Below, piece after piece: positions 15,072 to 49,922 of a stretch of 64,000 nt of DNA. The first letter of the stretch is position 1. The number at the start of each line of letters is the position of its first letter. The position numbers and the translations under genes were made by a program. The stretch spans positions 15,624,001 through 15,688,000 of the forward strand of contig CP075493.1 in the NCBI GenBank assembly GCA_021613535.1, in the 5' to 3' direction. Source of the stretch: Adineta vaga. Its lineage: Eukaryota; Animalia; Rotifera. The notes beneath the pieces were generated by a model, which was not told the DNA's origin, did not search any database, and saw nothing but the letters and a program-made list of their open reading frames with translations.

Positions 15072-15197
15072 TCAGTGTCTTCCTTCTTAAAAAAAAATTA
15101 GAGGTTTATTAGTGGTCAATACAAGCCAATGTGCTGTCCTAGTACCATTGGGAGTGTGGGTGTGGGTTACAGATAAAACAATAGTCACACGCATCCT

Positions 15198-28829: not shown

Positions 28830-29137
28830 AATGAACTTTACATTTGAAATGAAAAGATTTGATAAAAAACGATTTTTGTTGATTCGATTTTAATTTTAAA
28901 AAACGAAAAAGATTTCTTTCAAAATAAAATTGAGAAAATCTTTTAGTTTTTCATGAAGAACTCGATGAAAAAATTGATTTGTTTCGCTGAAATTGTTTTG
29001 TCAAAGAATTTTTCTTGTCGTGAAAAATGAGTTTTGTTAATTTGAAATGAAATTTGGTAGAAGAAATGTTTTGATTTGATAAAAATGTTCGTTGAATCAA
29101 AGATTTTGTGTTTTTGATAATTTTATTTCTTTGGAAA

Positions 29138-29378
29138 TGTGAGTCTCTTATATCAGGGGATGAAGATGAATCTCCAGCTAACGAATATATCGTAAGCTGA
29201 ACTACTATACGAAAGTATGATCTGATGTGAAATCAAGAATCACGTCAAATATCCTACCGGAGATGACTGGAATGGATGAGGAGATGAAGAAATGGATGTA
29301 GATGAGATGAGGAAAGATGATAATGGTGTTTTATTGGATGAAATCAAATAAAACACTAAAGAAAATGATAACAAAAGA
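29138..29378 (-). repeat. 3' LTR, distal part
   Basis: Matches the first 241 bp of 49923-50428 with one substitution seen (gaatctcc vs gaatttcc). Confidence 0.95.
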
Positions 29379-31206
29379 CGTAGGATATCTTAGCGACGGA
29401 TTCGACTTTTTCTAGGATTTATTCGTTGTTTTATGCGTTCCAACTGAGATCTCACTGGTTCCAAGTAGAACTTGATGAGCTCTATCGATTCCAAAAAAAA
29501 TATTTCAAAAACTCACTTTCTTAACCCCTCAAAAACCCAAAAAACTGCGAAAAAACAACAAAAAAACGTCGAGTTCAGAGTAAACCCGTGGACGATTCGC
29601 CCTGAGACCCATTCCAAGAATTCTGACAATGGTTCCATATGTAACTCGATGAGCTCTATCGATTCCAATCATCAGATTTCCCATAGATCACTTCCTTAAT
29701 ACTCAAAAACCCTAAAAACCACTAAAATTTGCTAAAAATCTTACAAAAACCTTTGCGGATTCGCCCTGAGACCCATTCCCAGAATAATGACAATGGTTCC
29801 ATATGTAACTCGATGAGCTCTATCGATTCCAATCATCAGATTTCCCATAGATCACTTCCTTAATACTCAAAAACCCTAAAAACCACTAAAATTTGCTAAA
29901 AATCTTACAAAAACCTTTGCGGATTCGCCCTGAGACCCATTCCAAGAATTCTGACAATGGTTCCATATGTAACTCGATGAGTTCTATCGATTCCAATCAT
30001 CAGATTTCCCATAGATCACTTCCTTAATACTCAAAAACCCTAAAAACCACTAAAATTTGCTAAAAATCTTACAAAAACCTTTGCGGATTCGCCCTGAGAC
30101 CCATTCCCAGAATTATGACAATGGTGCCAGATGTAACTTGATGAGCTCTATCGATTCCGGAAAAAAAATTTCAAAAAACTCACTTTCTTACCGCTCAAAA
30201 ACCCAAAAAACTGCGAAAAAACAGCAAAAAAACGTCGAATTCAGAGTAAATCCCTGGACGATTCGCCCCGAGACCTATTCCAAGAATAATGACAATGGTT
30301 CCATATGTAACTTGATGAGCTCTATCGATTCCAATCATCAGATTTCCAAAAGATCGCTTCCTTAATACTCAAAAACCCTAAAAACCGCTAAAATTTGCTT
30401 AAAATCCTACAAAAGCCTTTGCGGATTCGCCTTGAGACCTATTCCAAGAACTATGACATTGGTTCCAGATGTAACTCGATGAGCTCTATCGATCTCACAC
30501 CTCGTTCGTGAATTTTGATCATTTTATTGCCAAAAAATAGATTAATTACTATATTGACAGTATAGCAACATAGAAAAACATTATGATTGGTTGATTTATT
30601 TTAACCAATAAGCTATGAAAATATGTCAGATGGCATATTTATCGAATATAAAAAAATTTATTTGTTGTTTTTAAATGAATTGAATTTTTTTCTATTTTAA
30701 CGACACAAAAGAAATTTCTTTGACTGGTTGAAATATTTTACCAGTAGAAAAATATTTATTCTAAGAAATGTGTAGATAGCGCTCTCTATCAGTTTAATGA
30801 ACATAAAAAGATGACTAGTTCAATAAACAAAATCTATTGGTCGAGTCATTTGCGCGAATAAAATGAAATAAATTGGAACAATGTCAATGTCAAACTGTTG
30901 TTTGATGGAGAATTATGAATTGTATTAAGAAAAAATATTAGAATAAATTTTTGATAGATTTTGAATACGAAAGACAATTTTATTGATGAAAATTAAATGA
31001 AAAAAATTTATTTTGGTAAAATAATTTTAATAATCGTAAAATATGATTTTTAGGAATAAAAAAAAGAAAAGAAATTTTAAAGAAATAAAATAAAGAATAC
31101 GTATATTTTGATAAAATTTAATTTAATTTAAAGAAATAATTTTAAGAATCGTTAAATATAGAATAATTATAAATGAAGAAAAATTTACATAAAAATTGTT
31201 GTTATT
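29379..31206 (+). repeat. Left TIR (1828 bp) with 174/164-bp tandem units
   Basis: Core GAG(C/T)TCTATCGA at 29477, 29651, 29815, 29979, 30143, 30317, 30481, then ~725 bp AT-rich inner arm that is the reverse complement of 41001-41726. Confidence 0.93.
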
Positions 31207-31828
31207 GAAAGCAAGATTTTTGCATACTGGTTGAATATAAAGTTAAAGTTTATTTTTCAGTATCTTTTAAATCGTGTTTATCAAAACATACTAAGATGCA
31301 AATTTAGGTCGGTAATGTAAAAATTACTTTTGAAAATCAATCCTATAGTTCTTAAGTAGTTAATAAAATGAGTAATGGTGTATTGTATATTCTTATGTAT
31401 AAATCATCTAATTAGAAAGATAAAACGAATATTTGTTTTTCTCGTTTGTTTCATTTCATTTTTTCTTTTTATCTTCATGTGCTGACAGAACGTCTTTTTG
31501 ATTACAGTTGTTGCATAAGACAAAAAAAGAATGAGGAAATTGAATATGTTCTTATAATTTTTTTATGTTTTTCGTTCTATGAATTAAGTGATAAGCTATT
31601 TGTTGTAAACATTATTTAGATATCAATTTATTGGTAAACGTTTTTTCCAGTGATAAGAATAATCTGAAACTGTATTAAATATATGTTTATGTAGAATATA
31701 TATTTTTATCTAATTTTATTCTGAATATTCAATATCTATTTTGATATAGATAAAGATCTTTCTAATCTACTACTACAATCAATATATTTCTGTACGAACA
31801 TAGGAAAACTATTGTATATAGAAAAAAA

Positions 31829-33451
31829 CTAGATAGGAATCAAATCGTCTATGATATGTTCAAACTTATTAATTTTGTGTTGCAATTTATATTTAACAAG
31901 TTTGACCATGTAGATAAATAGAATCAATAAAATAAGACATAAGATTGATATTATAGATATTGCGATATCACGAATTAATTGCTTCACAGTAAATGTTTTT
32001 GATGTATAATAAGACGGTATGAAACTATTGAACAAATTTTGGAATTGATTTTGGTACGATGCCATTAGTACCTGTTCATAACCTTTAACCGGAATAAAGA
32101 AGCTTGATAATTGTTCTATATTAAATTCAGGATTATGTAAAAAATGTATTCTCTTTCCACTACATGTTGTAATAGGTAACTGGAAGTTAGTGCATGTGAT
32201 TGCCATGTCGCATGGTAAGCGTATCAATCCAGTTTCATTAACTGAAATTGTTTCAGTTGTACCATTTTGGTATGAAATTTTACAATAAATTGTATTTTCA
32301 ATATTGTAAAAGAAGAATATTCCATCATCTATTTGTAATAAATTTTGATCTATATCTTGCGATCGAGTAAGTGAACATTTAGTGTTAGAAATTAATTGAT
32401 GATTGAATAATTCATGTAAACATGAATACTTTCTTAATATAAAGGATATTGGTTTTTTCTTACATATGACAATTCTTGAAAATGTACATTCATTATAATC
32501 AAACTCATCGTTCCACAATACTAATTTATTATCAACTGTATTCATCCCAATTGCTTTTGGAAGATTTATATATGTATATTTTTCATAATTGAATATGAAC
32601 GGTAAGGGAATCACTTGAAAAACGGAAAATTTTGTTATACTATCAGCTGGAATCTCTAAAAATAATGTGGACATTACTAGACACGGTTGAGTTGAAACTA
32701 AGTTGGTAGTACTCTTCAAACAATTTCTCATGACAAATACAGATTGTCCAATAATTAGTTCACTAAATTCATTTAATGACTTTTGAATATCATATATTGT
32801 GTTTGAGCTATCAATAGGTGATAATACTGCGGTTAAAAGTACATGTAAATCATCATTAGACAAATAATCAAAATCGATTTTGTTGTTAGTAATGTGTTGA
32901 AGAATTATTTCAGCTGGTACTGCACGAGCACGAGGAATATTGGTATGAATACTGAGACCATCGCTCTCTAGCGTTGAAGTTAATGTACTTTTATCCAATT
33001 GTTTTTGACAAAAGAATTGTTTCTTAAAATAATGAAATATTGATTTATTATTTGGAAAACTTTTATCATGTTGCTGCATAAGTATATGGTTTAAATCATC
33101 ATTAATCAATTTCGAAATATTATTCTTATGAAAAGATGATAATGTATGAACTGATTCACGAGATGACATGATCGTACCTATTTCCAATACATTTACATTC
33201 TTGTGTTCTAAGTCGTATACACAAACATCTGAATTGGATGAAGCAATACAGAAATTATGTAGAGGTAAGAATGTGTGAACTATTTGCTTGACAAGATTTG
33301 GTGAATAATCGCCAAGACGGCGAAGAACAAAGCCTTTGGTTGTATCAATTATAATATCACTTTCTAAAGAATCGAACACAGATACAAATGATTGAGTTCG
33401 AATGGCATTCATCATAAAATATATGACGAATAATTTTCGAAAATAAATCAT
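31829..33451 (-). CDS. Env-like (gypsy env / baculovirus F-like) membrane glycoprotein, intronless
   Basis: 540 aa: N-terminal signal peptide, Cys-rich ectodomain with N-glycosylation sequons (NIS, NKS, NGT, NET), FLEIP...FSVFQVIPLPF motif resembling gypsy env/F proteins, C-terminal TM and short tail. Confidence 0.68.
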   Translation of the reverse strand: MIYFRKLFVIYFMMNAIRTQSFVSVFDSLESDIIIDTTKGFVLRRLGDYSPNLVKQIVHTFLPLHNFCIASSNSDVCVYDLEHKNVNVLEIGTIMSSRESVHTLSSFHKNNISKLINDDLNHILMQQHDKSFPNNKSIFHYFKKQFFCQKQLDKSTLTSTLESDGLSIHTNIPRARAVPAEIILQHITNNKIDFDYLSNDDLHVLLTAVLSPIDSSNTIYDIQKSLNEFSELIIGQSVFVMRNCLKSTTNLVSTQPCLVMSTLFLEIPADSITKFSVFQVIPLPFIFNYEKYTYINLPKAIGMNTVDNKLVLWNDEFDYNECTFSRIVICKKKPISFILRKYSCLHELFNHQLISNTKCSLTRSQDIDQNLLQIDDGIFFFYNIENTIYCKISYQNGTTETISVNETGLIRLPCDMAITCTNFQLPITTCSGKRIHFLHNPEFNIEQLSSFFIPVKGYEQVLMASYQNQFQNLFNSFIPSYYTSKTFTVKQLIRDIAISIISILCLILLILFIYMVKLVKYKLQHKINKFEHIIDDLIPI

Positions 33452-34100
33452 TTTGATTTAATGCAATAAAGTGTTATAAACAGCAACGAACGTTGTAAAT
33501 TAGTGTAAAGAGTTTGTAATTATAAATGATATATGTATGATGAGGATATGAAAGAGCGAAAAGAACAATAGCGAGAATGGATATTTAGAACATTCATTCA
33601 AACATCGATATTTATATCTAACCACAATCTCGCTTTATGTGTATTTAATGATCAACTTTCACATTATAGGTAAGCTATCTCTTTGATTATTTTTCTTATC
33701 AATAGCTCTTTTAAGATATACGAAGACAATACTAGCGATAATATATCTTAGATACACAGGTCAATATTATTTTACTTGTTATGGAATTCTTTCTCCTTTT
33801 ATATCTATATGTCATTTGATTAGTAAATAACAATAAAATGTTTGATAGACAATTGTTATCATCATCATGTCGACATGAAATATTTATCCAATCGTTACAC
33901 AATAAAACAACGACATATTTAAAAATAGAACATTGCTCTTTATCTATATCTCATTTTTATAATATATGATATGATTCAAAGACCTAATATGGCACTGTAG
34001 TTAAAGACGTTTTTCTATCAAGTTCACATTATATTATTTTATTTCATAAATAATATTTCACAAATAAGTATTGGATATGATTCTATAGAAAAAAAGATAT

Positions 34101-34729
34101 TTAAACCATTTCATCACTATAAGATGATGCTTGATCACGTTGTTGAATAAATTCGTCAAGGATAATTTCCCTTTCTAGAATTAAAAGCATAAATACTATT
34201 TAATAAAATTGTTGTATTACACTTACGACGGCGACATACGTTTCTTCTTCCATACTCCGATGGACTTTTTATTTTAAACCATGATTTCTGAAAAGTAAGT
34301 TACATTAATGATTTAACTGTTTAAACAATAAATTCTTACTTTTACTCTGCAATTATTCTTATAACATTTTATTACAAAAATTACGAAAGAATATATTGCT
34401 GCTATAGCACATAAAATTGCACTAGCAATTGTTATTGTACTAGTAACATAATTTTCAATTTTTTCTTTAACTAATTCAGCTTGATGCACAATTGTATCGG
34501 TTTTATTTATGATTTTAGTTGAATAGATGATTGGTGTTGAGGTAGTTGAATATTTAATAAGATTTTTTTTAAAGTCAAGTAGTTTGAACAAATTATAATT
34601 CTAAAAAACAGAAATTAATGAGCAAAATCAATCAAAGCGAGCACTACTCACTTGAGCACTTATACTTATACATGTATTTACAAGAAAGAATAAAATAAGC
34701 ACACTTGGCATGATAGTTATGTCTGACAT
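34101..34729 (-). CDS. Small 4-exon type-I membrane protein (~160 aa)
   Basis: MSDITIMPSVLILFFLVNTCISISAQ|NYNLFKLL...TM(ITIASAILCAIAAIYSFVIFVI)KCYKNNCRVK|KSWFKI...RR|QREIILDEF...EMV*; GT-AG introns with compatible phases. Confidence 0.68.
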
Positions 34730-35676
34730 TAAAATAAGATACAGAATATATATATATTCTTATGTTCTTTTATGTTGAAATTAATTGAATTACAATTCTT
34801 GTTTTTTTAGCCATAGAATTATAGGAAAAATCATCAAAGAAGCTAATTGATAAACAATATGTGTTACATTTATTTATTCCTTAATTGTAATATCGTTCAC
34901 CGTATTTTGTTTTATATCTTTTTTGATACAGAAATACCTTTTATACGAAAAATAGAATGAAATGATGTGCGCGTTCGATCTTACAATTTTCACACTATTC
35001 ATGTGTATATGAGATCACATAATTGAGAATTTTGTTCCAGGAAAAAGTTCGTTACACTTTAAATAATTCTTATTTTATAGTTGCTATTTATGTTTGAATA
35101 CGATAATACGCTTCACTTTCTAGTAGATTATGTATGATAAATATTGTTTTAGAAATTTACTTCAAGAATTGAAATATCTATTAACTGTTATATTATGTAT
35201 GTCAATGATTAATGAACATATAGAATGTCAATTCTGGCTCATTTTTCATCTTGTTACGTCATTCGTTTCCAATGAATAAATATTTTTTATCAGGTTAAAT
35301 GGGCTTATCTGAAAAAAAAAGGTAATTGATCAATCCAATAGTGTGAGTTGAATACATATATATTTTTCTTCAATAAGAACTTCTTATTCATAAATTAGTG
35401 AAATAAATGTTTTATATTAGAATTTGAGTTCAAATATAGTTGATTGATGATTGTGTTCAATATTTATAATACGTTTTCAGTTTGTTTTCTTTAAACGGAA
35501 ATTCCTTTTTTTATTTCTTTCAAGAATGAATGATTCATTATTAGAACCAAAAAAAGTACAAATGTATTGACATATACATGTGTATGTATATATGATTTAC
35601 AACTTTTCTCGCTAAATTCTATATACATTATAAGAACTAAGATTAATAAAAAGAAAAAGCAATGATCAACAAACAA

Positions 35677-38600
35677 CTAGCAGTTATCAAATGTATATAT
35701 TTTTGTATATATTCCATATACGATTTGACCTGTTGACGTTGTAACTGGTTTAACATTTTTTAAATCGTCATACAGATATAATTGGTCATCATTATCAATG
35801 ACTGTAGCAGTGAAGTGTTCTATTGGTACACTTGTATGATGAATAACTGCACGTAATTTATATCTAGAAAGATAATTCATATAAAACTTCAAAAGAAAAA
35901 GTATTTTTAATAACTTACTCTACAGGACCAATTTTTATTTTATATTTCAAATTACGTAGTCGAGGTGTGTAGTCGGCAAATCCTTCATCACTTCTTTTCG
36001 ATAAATGTCTGACATGAACTACAATGATTGGTGGAAAAGCGTATGTAAATGTTGCTGGAGATGTATGTGTTATACTGTTACACTTCCAAACAATTCTATT
36101 TAGAAAAAATTCATTTAAAATGGGCACAGGAGAAGAAATGAAACTCATACTCGTATTCACTTGCTCCTGTATGTTCATCAATCAGATGCATAGGAGCTTC
36201 ACGATATTTTTGTTTTTCTGCTTGTTCTGGACTTAATTCATCATGACGTGCCATTATTATGTCACATATATCGACACCACCTTCTTCAAAATCTCGAATG
36301 TAATTATCACCAGTACTATTACAAAAAATTTGATTATAGGAGGATTATATAAATGAATTGATACTTACAAAATGATTAATTCTGTTGATGAGCTGTGACG
36401 ATTCATTAACTTACATTGAGGTCGGGAACATTCAGTTTCATACGAATAACGTTGTTCTTCTTTTATGAATTGGAATACTTGTGAATCAATGGAACCAAAA
36501 AGATTCTCCTTTTTAGCAAACTTGTCCAAAAGTCCGTTTGCATGTAACCATGTAAGGCGAGCAACATCCCAACCTTCATTTTCGACTAATTGAAAAACTT
36601 TGAAAAGTGTTGCATATGCTGATCCTGCAGATGCGTTTTCAAAATCGGCACCAAGATCAAAATCAGTTTTGTATATAAAGTAAAGAGCGAACAATGCTGA
36701 ATCTGTTGCACACGTATTAGTAAGACTATAACAGCGATCTTTAAAAAAATACAAAAAAATAAATTACACCAAATGAGATATTGATTTTCTATCGCTTACT
36801 TTTGAAAAAAACTTTATTTATTCCAAATTGTGGCCAACGTATTGTCTCTCCATTAATCTTAATTGCAGGTTGATTTGCAGATGTAACACGTAATTTTATT
36901 TTTAATTGGTTAGTTGTTGAAATTTCTTCTAGATTAGAAGCAGTTTGTATCTAAAACTGTGAGGTATTTATACATACTATTTTCAATCGGGCAGGTCGTG
37001 GTAGCAACTGAAGATACAACTTTCTTGTCAAAGTCACATTCAGATAAAATTTCATTTGGTTCACCAAGATGCTCAAAATTTTCATTGTCGTCGCCGTCAT
37101 CATCATCATTCTCTTCTTCCTCTCCTTCGACTTCTTCGACTTCTTCGTCTTCATCTTCGTCTTCGTCTTCGTCTTCCTCTTCCTCTTCTCCTTCTTCTTC
37201 TTCTTCTTCTCCTTCTTCTTCCATCTCAATTCCTTTTTTCTTTTCTCTATCTTCTTCAACAGTACGACTATCCATTAATATTTTAACTTTACGAATTCGA
37301 TTATTAGAAGAAGATGATGAAGATATTTTTCGATCACGTTCAGAGTATTTTCTACAACAGAAATTTTTTTCTTGTTAATTAAATTGTTTTTTCTTACTTC
37401 GAAAAATTATTATCACATGATGTATCCGATGAAATCGATTGATTTAATGATGACGTTGCCATATCATCTTCCGATTCACTAGAAACAAATATGTATGCTA
37501 AAAATTGAAACTTGATAACATCTACCTGCTGTCTCGTTTAACACGAACAGATTGACCATTATTTGAATTTGGTTGAACACGTTTTGGTGCAAGTTTATCG
37601 ATTGCTTGTGTATATAAACCTCGACGTTGTCCACCATTTCTTTTCCATTTTTCTGTTAAAACTTTAGTAGTTCCATCAGTAATGTTCATTGAATCACGTG
37701 ATTTCTTTTTTCTTTGTTTTCTTCCTTTTGAACTTTGTGTTACTCCAAATTTATTTGCTTTAAATTGAGTTTGAATGCTTCGATAAATTTTTCTGATTGC
37801 ATCACCTGGAGTATTATTACGTTTATTACCATATATGCTTTTTTTCATTGTGCGAAAATAGCTTTCGATTGTAGCATTTGAATAGCGGATAGGAGTGTAT
37901 ATTGTTGGTACTTCTTGTTTTTTGTCAATAGAATATCGTTCTTCAAAATTCCATAATAAGCCAGTCCACAGAGGTAAATATGCCCACCATCGATAAAATA
38001 TACGAATAATTGTTGGTGAAAATAATGGATTAACAACTTTACCATAGCTTGATTTTTTATTAGTAAGAACTGCAAGATTCGGATAAAGACGAAGTGCTTC
38101 TTTATTAAATGGTGATTGATGTATAATAGGAGTACTGGAACGAAAATATTCATCGACAATTTTTAATTCTTCATTTCGTTTCTTTGCTTGTTTCAATATT
38201 TTCTTCTTATCTGATAATATTTTCGCACTTTCTTCGTCAATATTAAGTATAAGAGAAAGCATTTGTTGAAATTTTTCGTGTGCATTCTTTTCATCTGGAT
38301 CACCAAATATACTTATAACTGTACCAAGTGTTTCATATAACCGATTAATGTCATTATCACATAAAATAAATACAAAGATGTGTAATATACCACGACGAAT
38401 TGTTTTATCTATACGTGTGGCATTCAAACTTCGTGCTATGGCATGTATAACATGACAACAACAAAGATGAATAAATGATAATGATCGTAATTCTGCAGCA
38501 TTATATTTTCCAGATATAACATTCCAACATCGATTTAAATGAGCATTAATATTTTCTACATTGAATGCTTGTAGAATCGAATTCATAAGTGCAGCAGAAA

Positions 38601-40136
38601 AATCAATAATAAAAAAAGAAGGAAGAACCAATTTACGTCTAACTTTGATGATGTTATTTGCCAAATTTCCAAAAAAATAACTAATACTAGGAACTGTATG
38701 ATCTGTAAGAATTGCGTGTGCAAGTGCAATATTATCATTTGCATCAGGTCCATCTTTAAAAACCATAGTATACATGTATGCATCGTTTTGTTGTTGTAGT
38801 TTTTTTAAAATTCCACCGGTAGCATCTATATGAACAAAAGAATACTTTTGTTGTTTACAGTAGGTTATGTATCGTTCGATTTGTAATTGTGAAAATAGAT
38901 GTGTACGAAATGGTATTTCGCCGACTACTTGAACATATCCTGCGAAAAGAATGAAAAACAAAATTTATGACATGATCGTTTAATATACAATTGACTTACC
39001 TGGAACTTTGTCGGATGTTACATCTGCTTGAAGATATGAAAAGGCGATAACTCGACATTCAGTATAGACATTTTCGTCGTATTTCATTTTCTTTCGATAA
39101 TCAGCTGATGTTTTTTTTACTACTTCTATTGTATTAACTTCTGCAAAATTACCACCAGCAAGTAATTTTTCGTCGGCGGCTTCAACACGTTCACGAAATA
39201 CTGCTAAAGGTCCAATATTATTTGCTCGCTCACCTAGATTAGCATTTCATAAAAGATATAATTTATAAAAGAAAAATCCTTACCAACACGTAAGCGTTCT
39301 TCTCCACGTAGTTGCCCTGTCATTATTTCAGTTTCAGGTGTATGATTTTCTATGCCTGATATTTCCATAGAAAATAGTGCTGTTGTATAAACATCTGGTT
39401 TATTTTCCAGAGCAATTAAATATGATCTGGTACATACACTACTAGTGCATACAGCACGACACCAGAATTTTTTACTTACTTTTTTCCTTTGTCCTTTAGG
39501 TATCTGTGGTTTTCCAAATCTTACTTCACATACAGCTCCATGTAACATTATCTTTTCATTAAATATTTTAATCCAACCATCATTCATTTTTTTCTGTGAG
39601 TCGCTATAGGCAGCTTTCCATTCAACTGGACTTAAAGCAAATGTTACCTTCTGGATTGGTGGATTTTCTTCACGGTTTTCGTCCTTTTCTTGTGCTTCAT
39701 TAGCACGTGTATTTGGTCGATCAGGTATAGGTACTGATAGGTTAGAGACTAATTTTGATTTTTTCAAATTTGGTATTGATTCTTCTGTTTCATTCATACC
39801 ATCATTATCTTCATTCTTCTTATGTTTAATTATTTTTATCTTCTTTTCGACAAGTGCATGAACCTCATAACGATCTAAGTACCACACATTGTATAAAGAG
39901 TGACGTAACTTTTCTGTATGCTTAATGTTTAATTTTGCGATAACTTGAGCCCATAAAGAGGATTGAATATCATAATCAGTATTTATTCGCCATGACTCTT
40001 TTTCAAGTTGATTGACACGATCTCCAAGAGATGCAATAGCAGCGACTAATTGTTCAACAGTGATTAACGACCAGATATTTTTCGTTGTTACCTTAGAAGT
40101 GGTCGTATTTTCTGTTGTTTTCTTGGAAGTAGTCAT
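35677..40136 (-). CDS. MULE/NOF-like DDE transposase fused to a USP-like cysteine protease (~1327 aa, 10 exons)
   Basis: Exons 40136-39284, 39233-39000, 38939-37526, 37478-37398, 37351-36978, 36928-36800, 36738-36369, 36315-36151, 36095-35919, 35863-35677 sum to 3984 nt in frame. Motifs HIDATG, IIDFS, HLCCCH, SNATIESYF; acidic linker; LTNTCATDS and EHFTA...LYDD. Confidence 0.83.
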
Positions 40137-41000
40137 ATTTTCGTAGCAATGAATACAAGAACAATGAAATAGAAATACTTTTGTTGATGTAAATTCAATT
40201 TCAAATGATATGTATCGTGTTAATGAAATTTGTTCCAAATACAAACGAATATTTATACGGTGTTTATCTACCCAACCAGACGAACTTAAATCAATCAGTA
40301 AAAAGAATGCATTATCATCAAGGAGTTCTTGATGATTAAACAAAATACACTTCAAAAATTCTCCTCCTATGCCTTATCAATTTATCAACATCAACCGTAA
40401 AATGTATCCCTTTGATGCACAGCGACAGACATCAACGTTTCTTAAGACAAAAAAAATGAACACTATCAGATGGACACTTATCATACACATTGTATCTGTT
40501 CTACTATTGTTGAAACAGATTCGGTTATTGAAGAGTTAGATATCTACTCGAGAAATAAAAGAAAAAACCGAAAGATATATTGAAATCAACTACAGACACT
40601 CACAACAAACGAGTACTTAAAACAACCATTAATCGATAAAATTAACTCGAAAAGTGCTTAATAACAAGTATCATATTTTTAAAGTCATATTTCTCTGAAT
40701 TATGTTATTTCAATCAATGCGACATACTCGTCAATAAAGCATTATATTTAATAAAAACGAGACGTATACAATTTCAACTAATCAAATTTTCTATTCCATT
40801 CATCCCTATAATCAATAAACGAATATAAGTGCACATAATTTCTACATAGTCATCCAAAACTAGTAAATATAATTTTTTGATCAAAAAATTAAATAGTTAT
40901 AGTCATTTCTATTATCTGTTTTTTATTTCTTATATAATATCATATATGAAACTCTTAAATCTTCTGATATAACATCTTTTTTCCTAAGTTTTTCATTTTG

Positions 41001-42162
41001 AATAACAACAATTTTTATGTAAATTTTTCTTCATTTATAATTATTCTATATTTAACGATTCTTAAAATTATTTCTTTAAATTAAATTAAATTTTATCAAA
41101 ATATACGTATTCTTTATTTTATTTCTTTAAAATTTCTTTTCTTTTTTTTATTCCTAAAAATCATATTTTACGATTATTAAAATTATTTTACCAAAATAAA
41201 TTTTTTTCATTTAATTTTCATCAATAAAATTGTCTTTCGTATTCAAAATCTATCAAAAATTTATTCTAATATTTTTTCTTAATACAATTCATAATTCTCC
41301 ATCAAACAACAGTTTGACATTGACATTGTTCCAATTTATTTCATTTTATTCGCGCAAATGACTCGACCAATAGATTTTGTTTATTGAACTAGTCATCTTT
41401 TTATGTTCATTAAACTGATAGAGAGCGCTATCTACACATTTCTTAGAATAAATATTTTTCTACTGGTAAAATATTTCAACCAGTCAAAGAAATTTCTTTT
41501 GTGTCGTTAAAATAGAAAAAAATTCAATTCATTTAAAAACAACAAATAAATTTTTTTATATTCGATAAATATGCCATCTGACATATTTTCATAGCTTATT
41601 GGTTAAAATAAATCAACCAATCATAATGTTTTTCTATGTTGCTATACTGTCAATATAGTAATTAATCTATTTTTTGGCAATAAAATGATCAAAATTCACG
41701 AACGAGGTGTGAGATCGATAGAGCTCATCGAGTTACATCTGGAACCAATGTCATAGTTCTTGGAATAGGTCTCAAGGCGAATCCGCAAAGGCTTTTGTAG
41801 GATTTTAAGCAAATTTTAGCGGTTTTTAGGGTTTTTGAGTATTAAGGAAGTGATCTATGGGAAATCTGATGATTGGAATCGATAGAGCTCATCGAGTTAC
41901 ATATGGAACCATTGTCAGAATTCTTGGAATGGGTCTCAGGGCGAATCGTCCACGGGTTTACTCTGAACTCGACGTTTTTTTGTTGTTTTTTCGCAGTTTT
42001 TTGGGTTTTTGAGGGGTTAAGAAAGTGAGTTTTTGAAATATTTTTTTTGGAATCGATAGAGCTCATCAAGTTCTACTTGGAACCAGTGAGATCTCAGTTG
42101 GAACGCATAACACAACGAATAAATCCTAGAAAAAGTCGAATCCGTCGCTAAGATATCCTACG
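41001..42162 (-). repeat. Right TIR (1162 bp)
   Basis: Reverse complement of the left TIR minus 666 bp (four repeat units). Confidence 0.93.
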
Positions 42163-42440
42163 TAACAAAAGACTGACTAGAGAAAAAGAAAAACAATAAT
42201 ATAAATACAGATCAGAGATGATCTGAGAAAAAAAAAAATAGAAAAGAGAAGAAAACAAAGAAGAAATACAATCACAGAAATCATCATGAGAACGGACATG
42301 ATAATCAACGAAAACTAAAAGACGACAGGAAAGAAAGAGAAAGAAGATATACATATATATGTGTATATATATGTATAGAAAAGAAAGAAAACAACTATGT
42401 AGAAGGTAGCGTCATGAAGTAATATCCAATGACGCTAACA
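42163..42440 (-). repeat. TSD plus proximal part of the 3' LTR
   Basis: Matches 50154-50428 apart from a 3-nt indel in an A-run. Confidence 0.95.
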
Positions 42441-42452: not shown

Positions 42453-42653
42453 GCGAGATTGATTGAACGCACGTTTGCCCCCCTAAACAAGGAAGCCAAC
42501 TAAACAAGTCAATCTAGAAAACAGAGAAATGAAACATCGATAACAGAGAAGGATAAGCGAAACAGAAAGGAAAAGTATAACAAAACTTTTCCAGAGATGA
42601 AAAAGAAACAACTAAACGAATAGGAAAAACAAAACGTGTAGAAACAGAAAGAG

Positions 42654-43874
42654 TCAATGACCTTGACATTGCCAATGATGATAATGAGCAACATCAAAAA
42701 TATCTGTAGACAAGGTTCGTTCAGCATGTTCTTGTCGAAGCCGGTTATGAAATCGAATGGATATTTGTTGATGACGAAAGTGAGGAATGTTGGCATAGAT
42801 GATCTGTTGATAGTCCAGGTAATTTTTCACATCTGATAATCGCCAAAGTGAATCGATACTTCGTACAACAACAAAGGATTGTTGACGTAAACGAAGTTTA
42901 AGATGACGTTTGCGATTACGAGTAGCAATCGCTGTACGAGAACGTGTATGTGTACGTGCACGTGAATGAGAGACGGTTTCGGGATTGAAGGAAGAATTAG
43001 TTTGAAAACCCGAAGAAAAACGAACTGTAGGAACAGAAGAAGCGAAATAGGTCATGATCGATGACCAAATCGTCGAACAATGACTTGGATGAAGATGAAG
43101 ACCATCATGAGTTAAATGGGTAGGTGTAATAAAAAGATCAAGAAGGAGAAAGTTTTTCCTGAAAGCTAGATCACGTAAACGAGAATTATAATGATGAAGA
43201 TTCGAGTGCAGTGAGGAAAGCGATGGGAAAGAGCGAGAAGTTTTATAACACGGAAATGTGTATGTAATACCAATGGCTGCAGGATGATCGAGATGAGCAT
43301 AGGTGTTACGTAAATAGTCAATTAATGATGCGATTTGATCTATGATGACAGAAGCTCTGGTGTTTCTAATCGAATTAGATCCGATAATGAATAATATTCG
43401 AGAGAAATTCGCTACATCTGATGAGAAAGAAGAAGAAGATGTGAGAAGAGAAAAAGTGCACAAAGACGAGTTGTACGAATGTGACCAGGATAATCCAGAA
43501 ATGGATTTAGTTGTGATGGAATATTCAGGTGTTTCGAATAGAGGAGGAAAGGCGCGACCATGGCTGTCAGTTAATAACAAGAACGCAGAGCGTAATGTGG
43601 TAGGTGTAGATAAGGATTGATGATGATGATGAGGACTATTGATGGAAAGTCGGTGAATAGGAATGTCGGATGAGTGATAGTAATGATTGGAAAGACGACG
43701 GTTGTCCACCACCGAAAGTGGAGGAAACACTGATGAATGATGAGAGTCTGCGGATGAGAGAGAGAGATGAGAGAATCGATTAATCATAGGCGACGATAAA
43801 GAATGATGCTGTAAATAAGATGAAGGTGGTGTGGTGGAAGATTTGGAATAGCACGACGGTTGATGATATGACAT
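42654..43874 (-). CDS. Retrotransposon ORF3, SGNH/GDSL hydrolase
   Basis: Block I LLLTDSHGR, block III IIGSNS, block V DGLHL; Ser/His-rich N-terminus; likely ATG at 43874. Confidence 0.8.
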   Translation of the reverse strand: MSYHQPSCYSKSSTTPPSSYLQHHSLSSPMINRFSHLSLSSADSHHSSVFPPLSVVDNRRLSNHYYHSSDIPIHRLSINSPHHHHQSLSTPTTLRSAFLLLTDSHGRAFPPLFETPEYSITTKSISGLSWSHSYNSSLCTFSLLTSSSSFSSDVANFSRILFIIGSNSIRNTRASVIIDQIASLIDYLRNTYAHLDHPAAIGITYTFPCYKTSRSFPSLSSLHSNLHHYNSRLRDLAFRKNFLLLDLFITPTHLTHDGLHLHPSHCSTIWSSIMTYFASSVPTVRFSSGFQTNSSFNPETVSHSRARTHTRSRTAIATRNRKRHLKLRLRQQSFVVVRSIDSLWRLSDVKNYLDYQQIIYANIPHFRHQQISIRFHNRLRQEHAERTLSTDIFDVAHYHHWQCQGH

Positions 43875-44105
43875 AGTTGAAATGGTACGAATGGGAAAAA
43901 GTGATGAATCACCAAAAAAAAGTAAATCTAAATGAAAGAAAAAAGAAAGGTTGGCTGAATCAATTCCGTAAAGAATGCACGGAAGAGTCATTAGTCTCTG
44001 TAATAACAGATGGACAAGATGGCCACTGAATATAATGCAGAGAACAGAGAATATTAGCAAACGAGAAAAAAAAAAAACGAAGTTTAGTGATAGTTAACTA
44101 GAATA

Positions 44106-47100
44106 TCATTCGACTAGTAGTGGTCGGATATCATTAACATGTACACGAGAAATTATGTCAGTTTCGATATCTTGTACTACGTATGTCGGATGATTCACAG
44201 CGGTAATCCGTTTCGGAATGGATGAAAATCTAGGATCTAGTTTCCCTCGGGTTCCATGAATTCGGGTCAGAACTAAGTCGTCAAGGGAATAATGAGGATC
44301 ACTACGATTTCGATCATAGACTTGCTTACTATAATGCTGTTGCATGAGAACATTATAGTGAGTGGCTTGGTGAAAAATACGTAACGTTTTTTGCAACTGC
44401 TGAAAATAGTCGTTCGGCCGTGAGAAAGAAAAACTCTTAGGACGAATGTTAATAGGTAGACGAGCAGCGCGACCGTATAATAGTTCAAAAGGGGAATATT
44501 TAGTCGTTTTGTGAACACCTGTATTATAGGCGAAAACAACTGTTTGTAAATACTCATCCCAATTGTTATCCTGATCATTCTGTAGTTTTGCTATTTGAGG
44601 AATAAAGGTGGCATTGAAGCGTTCGACAATGCCGTTGGTTTGTGGGTGATAAGGAGTACTAAAGATATGATTATAACCTATAAGATATTGAATATTCTCC
44701 ATCAGTTGGTTTCGAAAATGTGATCCTTGATCACTAAGAAGAACTGTGGGTATTCCATATTTACAGAAATAATCATTAAATAGCGCTTGTGCAGTTGTTT
44801 CTGCGGTACAATTAGGTAATGCTATTGCGGTAATATGACGAGTGAAATAATCAGTTATAACAAGCACATACTGATTTTCACGTGGTGTCTGTTTTAATGG
44901 ACCACAATAGTCAATACCGATCATTAGAAAAGGTCCCTCAGGTGGATTAAGGGAATGTAAATGACCAGGTTTCTTAAGACGACTAATATTGTGCTGTTTA
45001 CATAACCTACAAGACCTTATGTATCGTCTAATAGCAGACTTCATAGACGGCCACCAATAAAGGTTTTTAATCTTTTGATAGGTACGTTCAAACGAGAAAT
45101 GTGCTCCTATCATAGGATCATCGTGACACGCCTGAATTAAGAATTGCTCCATAGACAAAGGTAAATATATAACTGCTATTTTACGTTTAGAATGTCGTGA
45201 AGGTTTAATTATCTTATATAGAAGATCATCCTTTAAGACAAAATCTAGATTCGGTACCCGATTAGAAAGTTGATGTAAAACAGTCTGTATAGCAGGATCA
45301 TTCCTTTGTTCTGTTTGTAACTGACTTAGATCAAAATAATTAGTGGAAAAGTGTTTAGGAGATACTGTCGAGGACACAATTTGATTTGGATTACTCTCGT
45401 TTATATCATCACTATGCATTGTCTGTGCATCAGTAGACGATTTATTCTTTTTAGTGTGTGATCGAAGTGTCATTGTAGCAACGAGACCTTTTTTACTAGC
45501 TAAGCCATATTCGATCTCGAAGAGTTCATCGTGTGGATCAGGAGAATAACGAGAAAGGAAATCAGGAAGACAGTTCTCGCTGCCTTTGATATGAATTACT
45601 TGGTCGATATTATATTCTTGAAGAAGATGAGTAATACGTTCGACACGTGTGTTATGTACTGATTTTTCCATGAGATGACACAGAGGACAATGATCAGTAC
45701 GTAAAATGATGTTGCGGCCTAACAAAAATGTACGCATTCGCGCAAAACATTTATATATTGCAAGTGCTTCTTTTTCGATGGTGCTATATTTGCGCTCACA
45801 TGTAGACATCAATTGAGAATGGTAATACAAATTATGTACCTCACCATTTATTTCCTGTTGTAGCACGCCGCCTATACCAATATTACTAGCATCGGTTGTC
45901 AACATTATAGGAATGTCATCAACCGGAAAATGAAGAAAAAGTGGCGTACTAACGAGCATCTTTTTCAGAGCTGTGAATGCCTGCGATTGTGCGTATTTCC
46001 ATTGAAATTTATGACGAGTAGCTTTAGTAAGATTAGTTACTGCGTGTATAGGAGCGGCTACTGTAGCAAAATCAGGAATAAACTTCCTATACCAGCTCAA
46101 AGAACCGATAAATTTATTAGCCTGCGCAAGAGTTTTAGGCTCCTTAAGTGCCAGAATAGTGTCGATTCGTTCTTGTAAAGGTTTCAGACCATATTGGCTA
46201 ACCGTATGTCCTAAGTAATCAATTTCCTGAACAGCAAAAACACATTTAGGAGGATTAAGAACTAAATTCTTAGCTTGTAAAGCAGTGAGAACTCTTTCTA
46301 AATGTTCTAAATGGTCTGCAAAAGACTTAGAAAAGATGATGATATCATCAAGATATACAGAAGAAAAGGAACGACATGATTTCAATGTATCGGTCATGAC
46401 TTTTTGAAAGGTAGGAGGAGAGTTCCTTAGACCCATAGGTAGAACATTATACTGGAATAATCCAAAAGACGTAACAAATGCGGTTTTTGCTTTATCCTCT
46501 TCACGTATTGGGATTTGATAAAACCCTGATTTTAAGTCCAATTTAGAAAAATAACGATAACCTGTACCTAACCTACGAAGGGTGTCTTCCATGTTGGGTA
46601 GAGGTGAGGAATCCTTAATGGTAACTAAATTCAGTTTTTTGTAATCGACCACAAATCGATGAGTTCCATCTTTCTTTTTAACAAGCATAGCAGGTGCAGC
46701 ATATGGAGAATGAGATTCAGAGATCAGACCTGCCTGTAAAAATTCCTGCATTAAATCATACATGATTTGATCTTTATCGGGTTGTGGGTAAGGTTTACAA
46801 GCGGGTGGAGAGTGCGGAACTGTATTTATTACGTGATGAATAGATGTGTGAGCAATAGTATGTGTACGAACATCAAAAGATGACGAAAAATGAATGAGTA
46901 ATTGATATAATTGATGGCGATCTGATGGATTATCGATCGATTGAACTAACTGATCGATAGAATTTATGACCGACTGTGGTAGTGTATGAACTGTATTACA
47001 CATGAAAGATTGAGTAGAAGAAGGAAATGAGTATTGACCAGAAACAAATGATCGGATCGAATCGTGAGAATCAGAACCATTTGATACATCTGTCGGAGAA

Positions 47101-47699
47101 TAAAATGGATCTATGTATGTATCAGGAATGCTAATACTATTGAAGGATACTGAAGTAGATGGAAAGATGACTGGAAAGAAACAAGAAGTGTCGGCATGAT
47201 TGATATAGCCGAGGCGGTTATTATTTCTCACGGTGTGTTCCGTGTCGATACGTATAGTAGCTATTTGACTATCATATTCAATAGATATAGTTTGATGTCT
47301 TACATTAAAACTAAGATTATACTGATTGATATAATCCATTCCTAAAATCATACTGGTACATAGATGATCAGCTATCTGAGCGGTTACTGTAGTCATCAGA
47401 TGAGCAAATTGAAGAGTCAGAAAAACCGTGCCTAATACATGAAAAGGTGCGATTCCGTCAGCTAAAACGAAAGAAGAATGGGTACTGTCAATCATCTGAT
47501 AATGGGGAAGTTGTTCTAATAGATTTTTATTAATGAAAGTTGTAGTTGCTCCGGTATCAAGTAGAATTGGTGTAGAAAGTTGATTGACATATGTAGTAAA
47601 ATAGATTAGGGAAGATTTTGATGGGTTTGAAAAATCATTTCCGGAGACAACACCATCTATCGATGTCTCCGGATCTAGAAACTTGAACAGGCCGAAGCC
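44106..47699 (-). CDS. pol: Pol polyprotein (PR-RT-RNase H-IN)
   Basis: Frame open from 47699, including the protease LLDTGA (~47550); RT YLDD; RH TDAS; IN HHCC and D,D35E. Confidence 0.95.
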   Translation of the reverse strand, partial: GFGLFKFLDPETSIDGVVSGNDFSNPSKSSLIYFTTYVNQLSTPILLDTGATTTFINKNLLEQLPHYQMIDSTHSSFVLADGIAPFHVLGTVFLTLQFAHLMTTVTAQIADHLCTSMILGMDYINQYNLSFNVRHQTISIEYDSQIATIRIDTEHTVRNNNRLGYINHADTSCFFPVIFPSTSVSFNSISIPDTYIDPFYSPTDVSNGSDSHDSIRSFVSGQYSFPSSTQSFMCNTVHTLPQSVINSIDQLVQSIDNPSDRHQLYQLLIHFSSSFDVRTHTIAHTSIHHVINTVPHSPPACKPYPQPDKDQIMYDLMQEFLQAGLISESHSPYAAPAMLVKKKDGTHRFVVDYKKLNLVTIKDSSPLPNMEDTLRRLGTGYRYFSKLDLKSGFYQIPIREEDKAKTAFVTSFGLFQYNVLPMGLRNSPPTFQKVMTDTLKSCRSFSSVYLDDIIIFSKSFADHLEHLERVLTALQAKNLVLNPPKCVFAVQEIDYLGHTVSQYGLKPLQERIDTILALKEPKTLAQANKFIGSLSWYRKFIPDFATVAAPIHAVTNLTKATRHKFQWKYAQSQAFTALKKMLVSTPLFLHFPVDDIPIMLTTDASNIGIGGVLQQEINGEVHNLYYHSQLMSTCERKYSTIEKEALAIYKCFARMRTFLLGRNIILRTDHCPLCHLMEKSVHNTRVERITHLLQEYNIDQVIHIKGSENCLPDFLSRYSPDPHDELFEIEYGLASKKGLVATMTLRSHTKKNKSSTDAQTMHSDDINESNPNQIVSSTVSPKHFSTNYFDLSQLQTEQRNDPAIQTVLHQLSNRVPNLDFVLKDDLLYKIIKPSRHSKRKIAVIYLPLSMEQFLIQACHDDPMIGAHFSFERTYQKIKNLYWWPSMKSAIRRYIRSCRLCKQHNISRLKKPGHLHSLNPPEGPFLMIGIDYCGPLKQTPRENQYVLVITDYFTRHITAIALPNCTAETTAQALFNDYFCKYGIPTVLLSDQGSHFRNQLMENIQYLIGYNHIFSTPYHPQTNGIVERFNATFIPQIAKLQNDQDNNWDEYLQTVVFAYNTGVHKTTKYSPFELLYGRAARLPINIRPKSFSFSRPNDYFQQLQKTLRIFHQATHYNVLMQQHYSKQVYDRNRSDPHYSLDDLVLTRIHGTRGKLDPRFSSIPKRITAVNHPTYVVQDIETDIISRVHVNDIRPLLVE
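47640..47684 (-). promoter_or_regulatory. Putative -1 ribosomal frameshift signal
   Basis: gag and pol overlap in the -1 frame; A AGT TTC TAG is followed by a 10-bp perfect stem TCCGGAGACA/TGTCTCCGGA. Confidence 0.65.
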
Positions 47700-49600
47700 T
47701 CATGTCCAAGTTGATTACAACGACTACAGGCAAAGGATGGAAGTTCATTTGATATAAGATCAATGTGATCGGCTGATTGAGGGAGATCAATAACATTAAC
47801 AGCAGGTTGCCGAAGAGGCATTGTATTGTTCGTATTGGAGTTTGTCATAAGAGGGCTAGGACTACTACTAGAAATATACGTCGGAGCTGGATTACGTGGT
47901 TGAGTTTGTTGTGAAAAAGTGGGAGTAGGAGTCGACCGATTTTGTGATGATGGAGCTGATGAATTAGAAAAATTTCTCGATTGAGAAGGGAAATTTCTGG
48001 ATTGAGAAGGAAAATTTCGTCGTTGAGGCGAAAAGTTTCGACTGTTCGAACCTTGGTTTCTATTGTTAGAGTTGCGGAAATTTGTATAGGAGTAGGTATT
48101 CTGGGAAGCAGAATATGAAGGAACGATAGATATAGGTGTGGATTGTGAGAACGAATCATGAGGTACGCCAAGAGCGTTAGGAAAAGTTAAATTTGATAAT
48201 TGCATAAGTTCTTCAGCTTCTTTCGCAAAGTCAAGAAATTCACTTGTTGATTGAGGTTTTTTCTTGCGTACTTCGTATTGAATAGAAGGTTTAGCTTTAT
48301 TTAAAAGGTTTTTGAGTTTCGTAGCTTCACTCATTGTCGGGTCAGCTTCTTTACAAAGTTTCAATACTTCATTGACGAAGCTACGAATCGATTGATTTTC
48401 AGTTTGAGAATATGACTCTAACTTTTTGAAAGCGAGTTCTTCATGAAAAGATGAAGTGAATGCTCGTTTCAATTCTGTAACAAAAAGAATCCAAGAAGTA
48501 AATGATGAACGATTATTCTTAAACCAATCTAATGCATCACCGCGTAAGGAATAAGAAATTAGGTCTAGACGAATAGATTCGGGTAAATGTGCTAAATCAA
48601 AGAGATGTTCAATGTTTTCAATCCATTTCTTAACGTCGTCTTTACCACCTTTAAACACTTTAGGATTTTTGATGAAGTCTCCTACAATAGCTTTGCGAAG
48701 ATCATTGAGAGTTTGATCAAGTTCAAAAGTAGAAGAAGCTTGAGAGGAAGTAGTAGAATTCAAAACTGGTTTGCCGTGGACAGGAGCGGTAACATCACGT
48801 TGAACTACTGAAATGGTAGCTGAAGAAATTAATGGATCGAAAGTGTCTGACATAAAGTCAGTTTGAGGCTGAACATGAGAGGATGTAATGGACGTAGAAC
48901 TATTCTTTTCTGGTAAAGTTTCATTCGTGAACCGAACGTGATGATTAGTTTTCGACGATGATGAGGAAATAGACGAAGAATCAAACTCCCTTAACAGAAA
49001 CGCGTAAAAATCATCAAAAGATTTTATAGATGCCCGGCATCGAATATATCGTCGTTTAGCTTCGCTTGCCACTAGAAATGATATGGCAACAAATCGAGCG
49101 TTTCTACCTATGTCAAACTTTTTGAATTTCTCTTCAGTATCATCAAGCCATTGAATGACATCCTCTCGACCTGTATACTGAGTGAAATGCTTTAATATAA
49201 AAACATCAAAAGAATCATCTTCAATCTGTTGATCCTCATTAGAATATGACTTATTTTCAATAGCATCATCAATGTGTAATTTAGCAAATCGACTTGTAAG
49301 ATTACTCTGTGGAGAACAATCTTGTTTACTCGAGACTTCCTGTTTTTGAGATGAAGATCTAGCTTGATCTGATTGAATTAGAGTCTCATCTACAGAAGAA
49401 TTGTTAGTTTCACATTCCTTTGATTGTTGAAGTACCGTGGGTAGCAATGTTAATCTACCCGTTTTGTAAATTGGATGTGATGCATCGTCATCCGTGTTCT
49501 TTGTAGAGGAAAAAACAGGATTAGCATTACATAATTCGGAATCTAATGAGTCACGTGCTTCTGAAGCAAAAAATGATGTGTTGTTCTGAGGTTCTGTCAT
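47675..49600 (-). CDS. gag: Gag
   Basis: Capsid-like PKVFKGGKDDVKKWI...ALDWF; C-terminal CX2CX4HX4C knuckle CSRCNQLGHEASAC. Confidence 0.92.
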   Translation of the reverse strand: MTEPQNNTSFFASEARDSLDSELCNANPVFSSTKNTDDDASHPIYKTGRLTLLPTVLQQSKECETNNSSVDETLIQSDQARSSSQKQEVSSKQDCSPQSNLTSRFAKLHIDDAIENKSYSNEDQQIEDDSFDVFILKHFTQYTGREDVIQWLDDTEEKFKKFDIGRNARFVAISFLVASEAKRRYIRCRASIKSFDDFYAFLLREFDSSSISSSSSKTNHHVRFTNETLPEKNSSTSITSSHVQPQTDFMSDTFDPLISSATISVVQRDVTAPVHGKPVLNSTTSSQASSTFELDQTLNDLRKAIVGDFIKNPKVFKGGKDDVKKWIENIEHLFDLAHLPESIRLDLISYSLRGDALDWFKNNRSSFTSWILFVTELKRAFTSSFHEELAFKKLESYSQTENQSIRSFVNEVLKLCKEADPTMSEATKLKNLLNKAKPSIQYEVRKKKPQSTSEFLDFAKEAEELMQLSNLTFPNALGVPHDSFSQSTPISIVPSYSASQNTYSYTNFRNSNNRNQGSNSRNFSPQRRNFPSQSRNFPSQSRNFSNSSAPSSQNRSTPTPTFSQQTQPRNPAPTYISSSSPSPLMTNSNTNNTMPLRQPAVNVIDLPQSADHIDLISNELPSFACSRCNQLGHEASACSSF

Positions 49601-49901
49601 CGTGTAAATATGTAAGTATGTATTCTTTTATTTTTATTTATTTGTGTTTCTTTTCTAAGAATGAAGAGAAATCGATAATCGTCTCTATATAGAGAAATAA
49701 CTGTATCGTATAGTATATACGTTATGTGAGAAAAGAAAAAGGAGGGAGAGAAAAAAGAAAAAAATAAAGAGATGACGTCAGAAATAAACAGAACGAATAA
49801 TTTCTCGGTCTGAATAACACGCCGTTTAAAGATGTGTATAAATATATTTATGTGTTCGTCTATGTATCAATAGTTACGAACGAACGAAACAGGCTAAAAG
49901 T

Positions 49902-49919: not shown

Positions 49920-49922
49920 AAA

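Follow-up and report, generated by a model that had tools for sequence, protein, structure and literature searches.

How does a simple cut-and-paste DNA transposon come to carry, and to keep, the gene of a viral-type glycoprotein? Envelope genes occur in long terminal repeat (LTR) elements and in virus-like DNA elements that have retained a capsid; as conserved cargo of a simple transposon with a DDE transposase they are unreported in the literature we found. The question is raised by a 64,000-bp stretch of the bdelloid rotifer Adineta vaga (assembly GCA_021613535.1, contig CP075493.1, positions 15,624,001 to 15,688,000; hereafter the window), in which an intact Mutator/foldback DNA transposon, a 12.8-kb unit, occupies positions 29379 to 42162. 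Between its terminal inverted repeats (TIRs) lie three minus-strand genes, all of them open, which code for a Mutator-like element (MULE) transposase, a small membrane protein, and a glycoprotein predicted to have the fold of class I viral fusion (F) proteins. The architecture is real, intact, and apparently undescribed, and comparison with relatives shows that the two predicted membrane proteins form a conserved, selected cargo module that recurs in them. Our favored reading, to which we give a probability of roughly 0.45, is that the glycoprotein acts as a nonfusogenic surface decoy against F-enveloped viruses or retroelements and is kept as stable cargo of the transposon. Bdelloids have no conventional sex, and the question of how DNA transposons survive and travel in them could be addressed with this small, intact, and apparently recently mobile three-gene unit in a species cultured in the laboratory.

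An intact transposon nested in a gypsy retrotransposon

The transposon starts with CGTAGG and carries the same terminus inverted at its other end. It is flanked by a 10-bp target site duplication (TSD), within the 8 to 10 bp of the MULE superfamily, and the 10-mer TAACAAAAGA is present once, at 50154-50163, at the empty site in the sister LTR of the retrotransposon that it interrupts. The TIRs are long (1,832 and 1,166 bp), with subterminal repeats of the foldback type, and are 98.2% identical over 1,077 bp and 97.3% over the outer 449 bp; the 666-bp difference in their lengths corresponds to four extra 164- to 174-bp subrepeats on the left, with seven core motifs versus three. We assign the element to the MULEs because of the 10-bp TSD and the foldback TIRs. 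An initial annotation, made by a model from the letters of the window, had likewise described a foldback/MULE transposon with near-identical giant TIRs and a clean TSD, enclosing three co-oriented and apparently intact genes, and these features all hold, with exact termini, an empty site, and three open genes on the minus strand (the transposase, a four-exon gene of 157 codons, and an intronless gene of 540 codons).

What that annotation missed is the nesting. The transposon interrupts one LTR of a complete and very young minus-strand Vesta1a gypsy element (29135-50428), which is bounded by a 5-bp GGAAA repeat and contains an exact match to the published Vesta1a_R primer at 42555-42576. The two LTRs of this host element differ by one mismatch and three gap columns in ~510 bp. 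Since the LTRs of a retroelement are identical at integration, and this near-identical pair had formed before it was interrupted, the DNA transposon inserted very recently. The host element shares no sequence with the transposon interior, and its third open reading frame (ORF) codes for a GDSL-like protein, not an envelope protein.

An inspection of the gap at 34760-35680 for a fourth gene found nothing convincing, and among the ORFs of the 12.8-kb element none codes for a gag/capsid protein, a polymerase, or a packaging ATPase. Because its 9.8-kb interior has neither the room nor an ORF for a capsid and a DNA polymerase, the element does not belong with Maverick/Polinton/Teratorn elements, and, having no gag, pol, or LTR remnants, it is not an errantivirus or another env-bearing LTR element.

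The late insertion, together with other flanks joined to the exact terminus, suggests indirectly that the element may be active in MULE-type transposition. In each of four DNA contig sets covering the right end, two to three contigs per run have other flanks exactly at 42163; one more contig diverges at 42165 in two runs, and lower stringency gives six diverging contigs in one run. Some of the contigs with other flanks may belong to sister families with the same termini. Contig depth is about fivefold higher over the transposon interior than over the neighboring gypsy interior (66 versus 14 and 287 versus 56), a ratio of depths and not a count of copies.

An X2/X3 contig joins the left TIR region to the 5′ end of the transposase gene (joint 30499-40025, with only 25 letters on one side); it may represent the element after an internal deletion, or else a sister family. 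Single-base indels distinguish the window from the collapsed contigs of two DNA runs at 34315 and 40882, outside the predicted coding exons, and these may be assembly errors or copy-specific.

The transposase

The ten-exon structure predicted by spliced alignment has nine GT-AG introns of 46 to 61 nt and no stops in the coding frame, and the product is 72% identical to an Adineta ricciae protein over 1,312 aligned residues. It contains D401, D475, a CxxH motif at 522-525, W680/681/687, and E721, followed by an acidic linker, such that (C/D)xxH follows the second D and W precedes the E; the catalytic roles are assigned from these motifs and not from a structure. D, D, CxxH, W, and E make up the MULE/hAT signature (PMC5499845), the CxxH standing 47 residues past the second D as compared with 15 to 45 in that source. 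A C-terminal papain/USP-like domain is predicted from an NTC motif at 1035-1037 and a His-box at 1272-1283, in keeping with the initial description of the gene as a transposase-protease, and in the A. ricciae orthologue the last 300 residues have language-model features like those of papain-like/UCH proteases (0.93), which we take as a lead.

A transposase exon from the window has no match to the Pfam MULE family PF10551; transposase relatives match it weakly, with E values of 0.012 and 0.085 that fall short of the curated threshold. One relative carries the name "MULE transposase domain-containing" in UniRef. The transposase has no Pfam FLYWCH match. Some transposase models include "SURF1-like" and Kelch parts, which we interpret as flanking host genes fused into the gene model and not as cargo. 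For the A. ricciae orthologue, the nearest cluster in the language-model atlas is vertebrate C14orf28 (0.96; in the window, 35677-37100 on the minus strand), a possible lead on the origin of that gene.

A glycoprotein with a predicted viral F fold

The glycoprotein has four N-glycosylation sequons, 12 conserved cysteines (kept in 91-100% of the covering alignment rows), and a C-terminal transmembrane (TM) segment at about residues 496-514. With a signal-like N-terminal segment it thus has the class I F combination of signal peptide, C-terminal TM segment, and conserved cysteines; the N-terminal hydrophobic peak is above threshold in 10 of 12 family members, but below it in the window protein. 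A. vaga has a second, diverged F copy, since another of its proteins is 98% identical to this one over 85% of the length and has a different C terminus. A contig of run X20, whose molecule type (RNA) is a guess, matches 32496-33779 at 97.7% identity and was used only as a natural variant.

A Pfam scan gave nothing meaningful for the ORF or for 36 relatives, and sequence-only searches of the PDB came back empty. A representative search at E ≤ 0.001 nevertheless collects 256 clusters (at 50% identity), and among the matches listed, full-length proteins of 529 to 552 aa extend down to 22% identity; this is a large family of F-fold proteins that lack a fusion trigger and have no annotation.

A first model of the glycoprotein, made from 12 sequences, was poor (predicted local distance difference test score [pLDDT] of 44), and its F matches were treated as leads only. 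The model from 110 sequences has ectodomain residues 25-485 at a pLDDT of 88.6 and a predicted TM-score (pTM) of 0.85. In a structure search of 48,161 chains that is independent of Foldseek, the top 12 rows are all F proteins, the best of them human metapneumovirus (hMPV) F, with a Z score of 9.3 and a root mean square deviation (rmsd) of 8.7 over 334 aligned residues. Prefusion F of respiratory syncytial virus (RSV) aligns over model residues 6-461 (Z score, 9.9; rmsd, 10.4; 345 residues aligned), and the prefusion forms of RSV and hMPV F both align end to end with the model, at Z scores up to 9.9; taken together, the ectodomain matches have Z scores of 9.3-9.9 and rmsd values of 9-10 over 330-350 residues. 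Foldseek gives E values of 1.4e-11 for granulovirus F and 3e-8 for RSV F, and among viral models it ranks baculovirus F and lispi/chu-type glycoproteins highest; a language-model atlas independently lists Baculo_F, Gypsy env, and paramyxovirus F (0.88-0.90) as leads. As the rmsd is high and TM-scores are 0.3-0.4, the domain arrangement differs from that of the viral proteins or is uncertain. The glycoprotein is predicted to have a prefusion-like viral F fold over its whole ectodomain. The initial annotation had called it a virus-like envelope glycoprotein and, in one of its two options, a captured retroviral env; the F-type fold stands in the predicted model and the retroviral type does not.

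The family lacks the canonical fusion trigger

The window protein has no RxxR motif, none is conserved in the 12 close relatives, and no Gly/Ala-rich hydrophobic stretch lies between the signal and the TM segment in any of 12 proteins. Among further relatives, the best 150 of the 256 in the representative search, none has a furin site and a fusion peptide at the position expected for F; the only one of the 150 to combine RxxR with a run of hydrophobic residues has it at residue 276, well away from where F is cleaved. The working fusogen envisaged by the initial annotation is therefore not borne out. In 28 sequences, the segment in the putative fusion-peptide slot (88-105) has 0 to 4 Gly/Ala and 1 to 5 charged residues. 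It forms a short amphipathic strand that in most cases contains an acidic residue, and its conservation is lower than that of the core (0.41 vs 0.52). The region equivalent to heptad repeat A (HRA) keeps its length but has 0 to 5 prolines, with at least 3 in 21 of the 28 sequences, and includes a disordered 30-residue loop in the model. The furin site and hydrophobic fusion peptide are reportedly conserved in errantivirus F and in the env of bdelloid TelKA elements (PMC13524379, PMC5408684), which sets the present family apart from both.

The membrane module recurs in relatives and its F gene is under purifying selection

The same gene set is found beyond the window. In A. ricciae, a single gene model (P0047) comprises transposase, small protein, and F in the order of the window, and in another record, from a contig of 33,453 bp, the accession that follows the transposase is P0046, the small protein plus F. 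The A. ricciae sequences are 72% (transposase), 48-51% (small protein), and 64% (F) identical to those of the window. In Rotaria socialis, where linkage is inferred from accession numbering and the records are isolates of one species, 8 of the 10 F accessions listed lie 20 to 33 numbers from a transposase accession of one cluster, whereas a second transposase cluster, which serves as a control, is never less than 1,851 numbers away; in three cases the F/transposase pairs are on contigs of matching size. Transposase models of Rotaria sordida and Adineta steineri end in small-protein sequence, the A. steineri match being by eye.

A metagenome scan added at least seven short loci (L001-L007). L006 has the small gene upstream of F, and L001 has two TIR-subrepeat motifs upstream of F, where shuffling predicts 0.05. 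In L004 (positions 1-450), F is head-to-head with a truncated transposase N terminus, which suggests a rearranged or differently organized family member. L002, L003, L005, and L007 show no link, and the gag, pol, and GDSL genes of the host retrotransposon have no match in any of the seven short loci.

The ratio of nonsynonymous to synonymous substitution rates (dN/dS, by NG86) is 0.28-0.37 in 10 of 10 non-independent pairs from the window and L001-L004. Between the window and a close variant, 18 of the 29 differences are listed, 8 of them synonymous and 10 non-synonymous, for a ratio of 0.32 (p 0.019). In the trees of both genes, which are poorly resolved and include only three linked pairs, the window groups with A. 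ricciae; the env tree is a quick version. The initial annotation had named what would speak against its proposal, namely an ORF with no fusogen fold, or a gene that is confined to this copy or flanked by its own LTR remnants and evolves neutrally; we find a predicted F fold, a recurring gene order, no LTR remnants around the ORF, and a dN/dS of ~0.3.

The small membrane protein

The predicted product has a hydrophobic N terminus, an ectodomain of ~53 aa, one TM segment near residues 84-103, and a polybasic tail with 12 K/R in 33 residues. The last two introns and the tail recur in L006, and the tail recurs in the R. sordida models. The protein is probably a trafficking or anchoring partner. 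FAST/sORF2 proteins of MDG1-group retrotransposons, small fusogens which mediate env-independent cell-to-cell transfer of retrotransposons (PMC11952523), likewise cross the membrane once and have a polybasic tail behind the TM segment. The protein encoded here differs from them in its signal-like N terminus, in having Ser at residue 2 and no Gly2 myristoylation motif, and in being spliced, and homology between the two is not shown.

A proposed surface decoy or a possible vehicle for spread

We favor a decoy because an element without a capsid cannot package itself, and because the trigger-less F most resembles Iris and baculovirus F-like proteins. Drosophila Iris (PMC1262188) and the group I baculovirus F-like proteins (PMC4864199) lack a furin site and are described as nonfusogenic. 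Like the glycoprotein of the transposon, Iris and Ac23 (a group I baculovirus F-like protein) are F homologues without the furin site; they differ from it in that Iris is a gene of the host, present as a single copy and under positive selection, and Ac23 belongs to the virion, whereas the present F is cargo of a mobile transposon, and we claim no orthology. A single acquisition, from an RNA virus or an env-bearing retroelement, would have brought in the F gene in intronless form, and its fusion trigger would have been lost early, before the family diversified, since even relatives at 22% identity lack it. The transposase would bind the subterminal repeats and move the whole 12.8-kb unit by MULE-type cut-and-paste. 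At the cell surface, the F protein could occupy the receptor of F-bearing invaders or poison their trimers, as proposed for Iris, and in a clonally inherited host the benefit would hold the cargo under selection. If this is true, the transposon pays rent by antiviral defense, a eukaryotic parallel to the defense cargo of bacterial mobile elements.

Several points weigh against a decoy. Purifying selection on trans-acting transposon genes is usually credited to horizontal transfer, which favors a role in spread. The fusion-peptide slot was assigned by secondary-structure order and not by residue-level superposition; and because an HRA-length segment (87-93 aa) and the heptad repeat B (HRB) stalk helix are retained in the model, the protein may fuse membranes by a non-canonical mechanism. 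L005 is a frameshifted F copy, and the frame of L001 ends early. Transposase relatives occur in Rotaria magnacalcarata, R. sordida, Rotaria sp. Silwood1/2, and D. carnosus, none of which yielded a named F homologue, so that the F cargo is patchy or was overlooked there. Iris, moreover, evolves under positive selection (PMC1262188), as compared with an F estimate that is an average dN/dS of ~0.3.

Cell-to-cell or vesicle-mediated spread, one of the two options of the initial annotation, is the foremost alternative to a decoy, and we regard it as less likely. With the help of the two membrane proteins, the transposon would pass from cell to cell or from animal to animal although it has no capsid. 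The pair might act as an atypical fusogen, or else as a docking ligand; the ligand would sit on vesicles, or on the particles of retroelements resident in the same cell, in which the excised transposase-DNA complex travels. Purifying selection and the long linkage to the transposase would fit selection at transfer events, and the model keeps a complete prefusion-like ectodomain with its stalk and TM anchor; of the fusion machinery proper, however, the furin site and the hydrophobic fusion peptide are lacking and the HRA equivalent is broken by prolines. Many sequences have a basic residue shortly ahead of the assigned slot, so that cleavage by a protease other than furin is possible. The single TM segment and polybasic juxtamembrane tail of the small protein resemble FAST/sORF2 (PMC11952523), but Ser2 and the signal-like N terminus leave it without the myristoylation motif, and neither a capsid gene nor a packaging gene is present in the element. 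In distant species no near-identical copy turned up, and the identities between A. vaga and A. ricciae for transposase and F fit vertical descent. In its strongest form, an "infectious" MULE in which an atypical F and a FAST-like partner move the transposase-DNA complex between cells or animals as a dedicated vehicle of horizontal transfer among anciently asexual rotifers, the idea seems to us unlikely; an entry role, if true, would be a new route of horizontal transfer.

It is improbable that the F homologue belongs to an old domesticated family of bdelloid host genes, with roles in adhesion or immunity, of which a MULE lineage captured one member. The family is large, deep, and trigger-less throughout (256 clusters, down to 22% identity among the matches listed), and the locus tag of a second A. 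vaga homologue, I4U23_011330 (38%), does not neighbor that of I4U23_016505, the one other transposase found in A. vaga; yet every context that can be read points to the transposon (A. ricciae, R. socialis, L001, L004, and L006), the F gene is intronless in the company of two intron-rich genes, and named homologues are patchy across sequenced bdelloids. Very little speaks for a reduced remnant of a transposon-virus fusion: such fusions exist, in Teratorn and in fusogen-bearing Mavericks (PMC6431247; bioRxiv 2022.07.12.499685), but the 12.8 kb hold no ORF for a capsid, polymerase, or packaging ATPase, and no relative was confirmed among IMG/VR candidates for either F (0 of 32 stretches) or the transposase (0 of 12). 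A last alternative is that an LTR-element env was captured neutrally, in the manner of a Pack-MULE, and in no other copy or lineage than this one. The initial annotation had offered Pack-MULE-style capture as an option, and the nesting in an LTR retrotransposon, the capture of fragments by MULEs, and the F-type env of bdelloid TelKA elements (PMC5408684) lend it some color. It is nevertheless hardly credible and largely refuted by the conserved linkage and purifying selection: Pack-MULE fragments are specific to a copy, usually partial, and borne by non-autonomous elements, whereas this element has whole genes and an intact transposase, the same gene set being found in other species at a dN/dS of ~0.3, no LTR-like repeats surrounding the ORF, and the Vesta1a host having a GDSL gene in place of env and no sequence in common with the element interior.

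Relation to known systems

Mutator/foldback MULEs such as Muta1, Tm1/Phantom, Drosophila FB-NOF, and the nematode MULEs with MAAP share with the present element long TIRs with subterminal repeats, a TSD of 8 to 10 bp, a DDE transposase that has the (C/D)xxH and W residues, and, downstream of it, a conserved accessory gene (PMC5499845, PMC3169594, bioRxiv 2022.07.12.499685). Unlike them, the element described here has an accessory module of two membrane proteins, one with the predicted viral F fold, and a transposase of 1,326 aa that ends in a papain/USP-like region. Among these MULEs, the closer tie is presumably to FB-NOF.

The class I F proteins of pneumo-, paramyxo-, baculo-, and lispi/chu-like viruses and the env of errantiviruses and TelKA elements share with the glycoprotein the predicted ectodomain fold, the cysteines, the stalk helix, and the C-terminal TM segment; it departs from them in its 6-16% identity, in lacking a furin site and hydrophobic fusion peptide, and in being carried by a DNA transposon without a capsid. 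Fusogen-bearing nematode Mavericks and Teratorn are also DNA transposons with a viral envelope gene, but they keep capsid and replication genes and have a herpes-type glycoprotein, whereas the present element has neither and its glycoprotein is of the class I F type. In the literature we found no MULE, nor any other simple TIR transposon, described as carrying an F-type gene, although the element may exist as a Repbase/Dfam consensus entry; the main text of PMC7943196 has no mention of MULE, Mutator, foldback, or envelope.

Features of the element and its surroundings

Table 1. Coordinates of the transposon, its genes, and the interrupted retrotransposon, numbered within the window
Feature	Position	Strand	Basis or remark
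3′ LTR of host Vesta1a, split by the transposon	29135..42440 (29135-29378 + 42163-42440)	-	repeat scan, sister LTR
Left TSD, 10 bp, TAACAAAAGA	29369..29378	+	single copy at empty site
Left foldback-type TIR, 1,832 bp	29379..31210	+	seven subterminal repeat units of 164-174 bp, then ~720 bp of non-repeated arm
Type-I glycoprotein with predicted F fold, intronless, 540 aa	31829..33451	-	single 540-codon ORF
Small type-I membrane protein, 157 aa, 4 exons	34101..34729	-	predicted splicing
Exons of the small protein	34729-34652, 34600-34340, 34287-34227, 34174-34101	-	predicted
MULE-type transposase, 1,326 aa, 10 exons	35677..40136 (ATG 40136 to stop 35677)	-	spliced alignment to A. ricciae protein
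Right TIR, 1,166 bp	40997..42162	-	three subterminal repeat units
Right TSD, same 10-mer, TAACAAAAGA	42163..42172	+	direct repeat
Host gag (49627-47675), pol (47699-44106), GDSL-like ORF3 (44093-42654)	42654..49627	-	not part of the DNA transposon
5′ LTR of host Vesta1a, with empty insertion site	49920..50428	-	repeat scan

Elsewhere in the window, an intronless 532-aa ResIII/DEAD-type helicase ORF at 52884-54482 (minus strand; E 3e-20) is possibly of foreign origin, and a 479-aa ORF at 13632-15071 (minus strand) has an ADP-ribosyltransferase domain (E 6e-8). A C-terminal fragment of a hAT transposase lies at 22544-23527 (plus strand). Typical expanded bdelloid families are represented by a caspase-domain ORF (25881-26411, plus strand), an NHL-repeat ORF (27836-28759, plus strand), and MFS transporter ORFs (55643-57239, minus strand). 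Three similar tandem ORFs of ~450 aa, each with a TM segment near either end, occupy 5050-10198 (plus strand), and an array of 10- to 12-bp GT-rich units at 15743-16027 is preceded by an 89-nt inverted repeat at 15181-15442.

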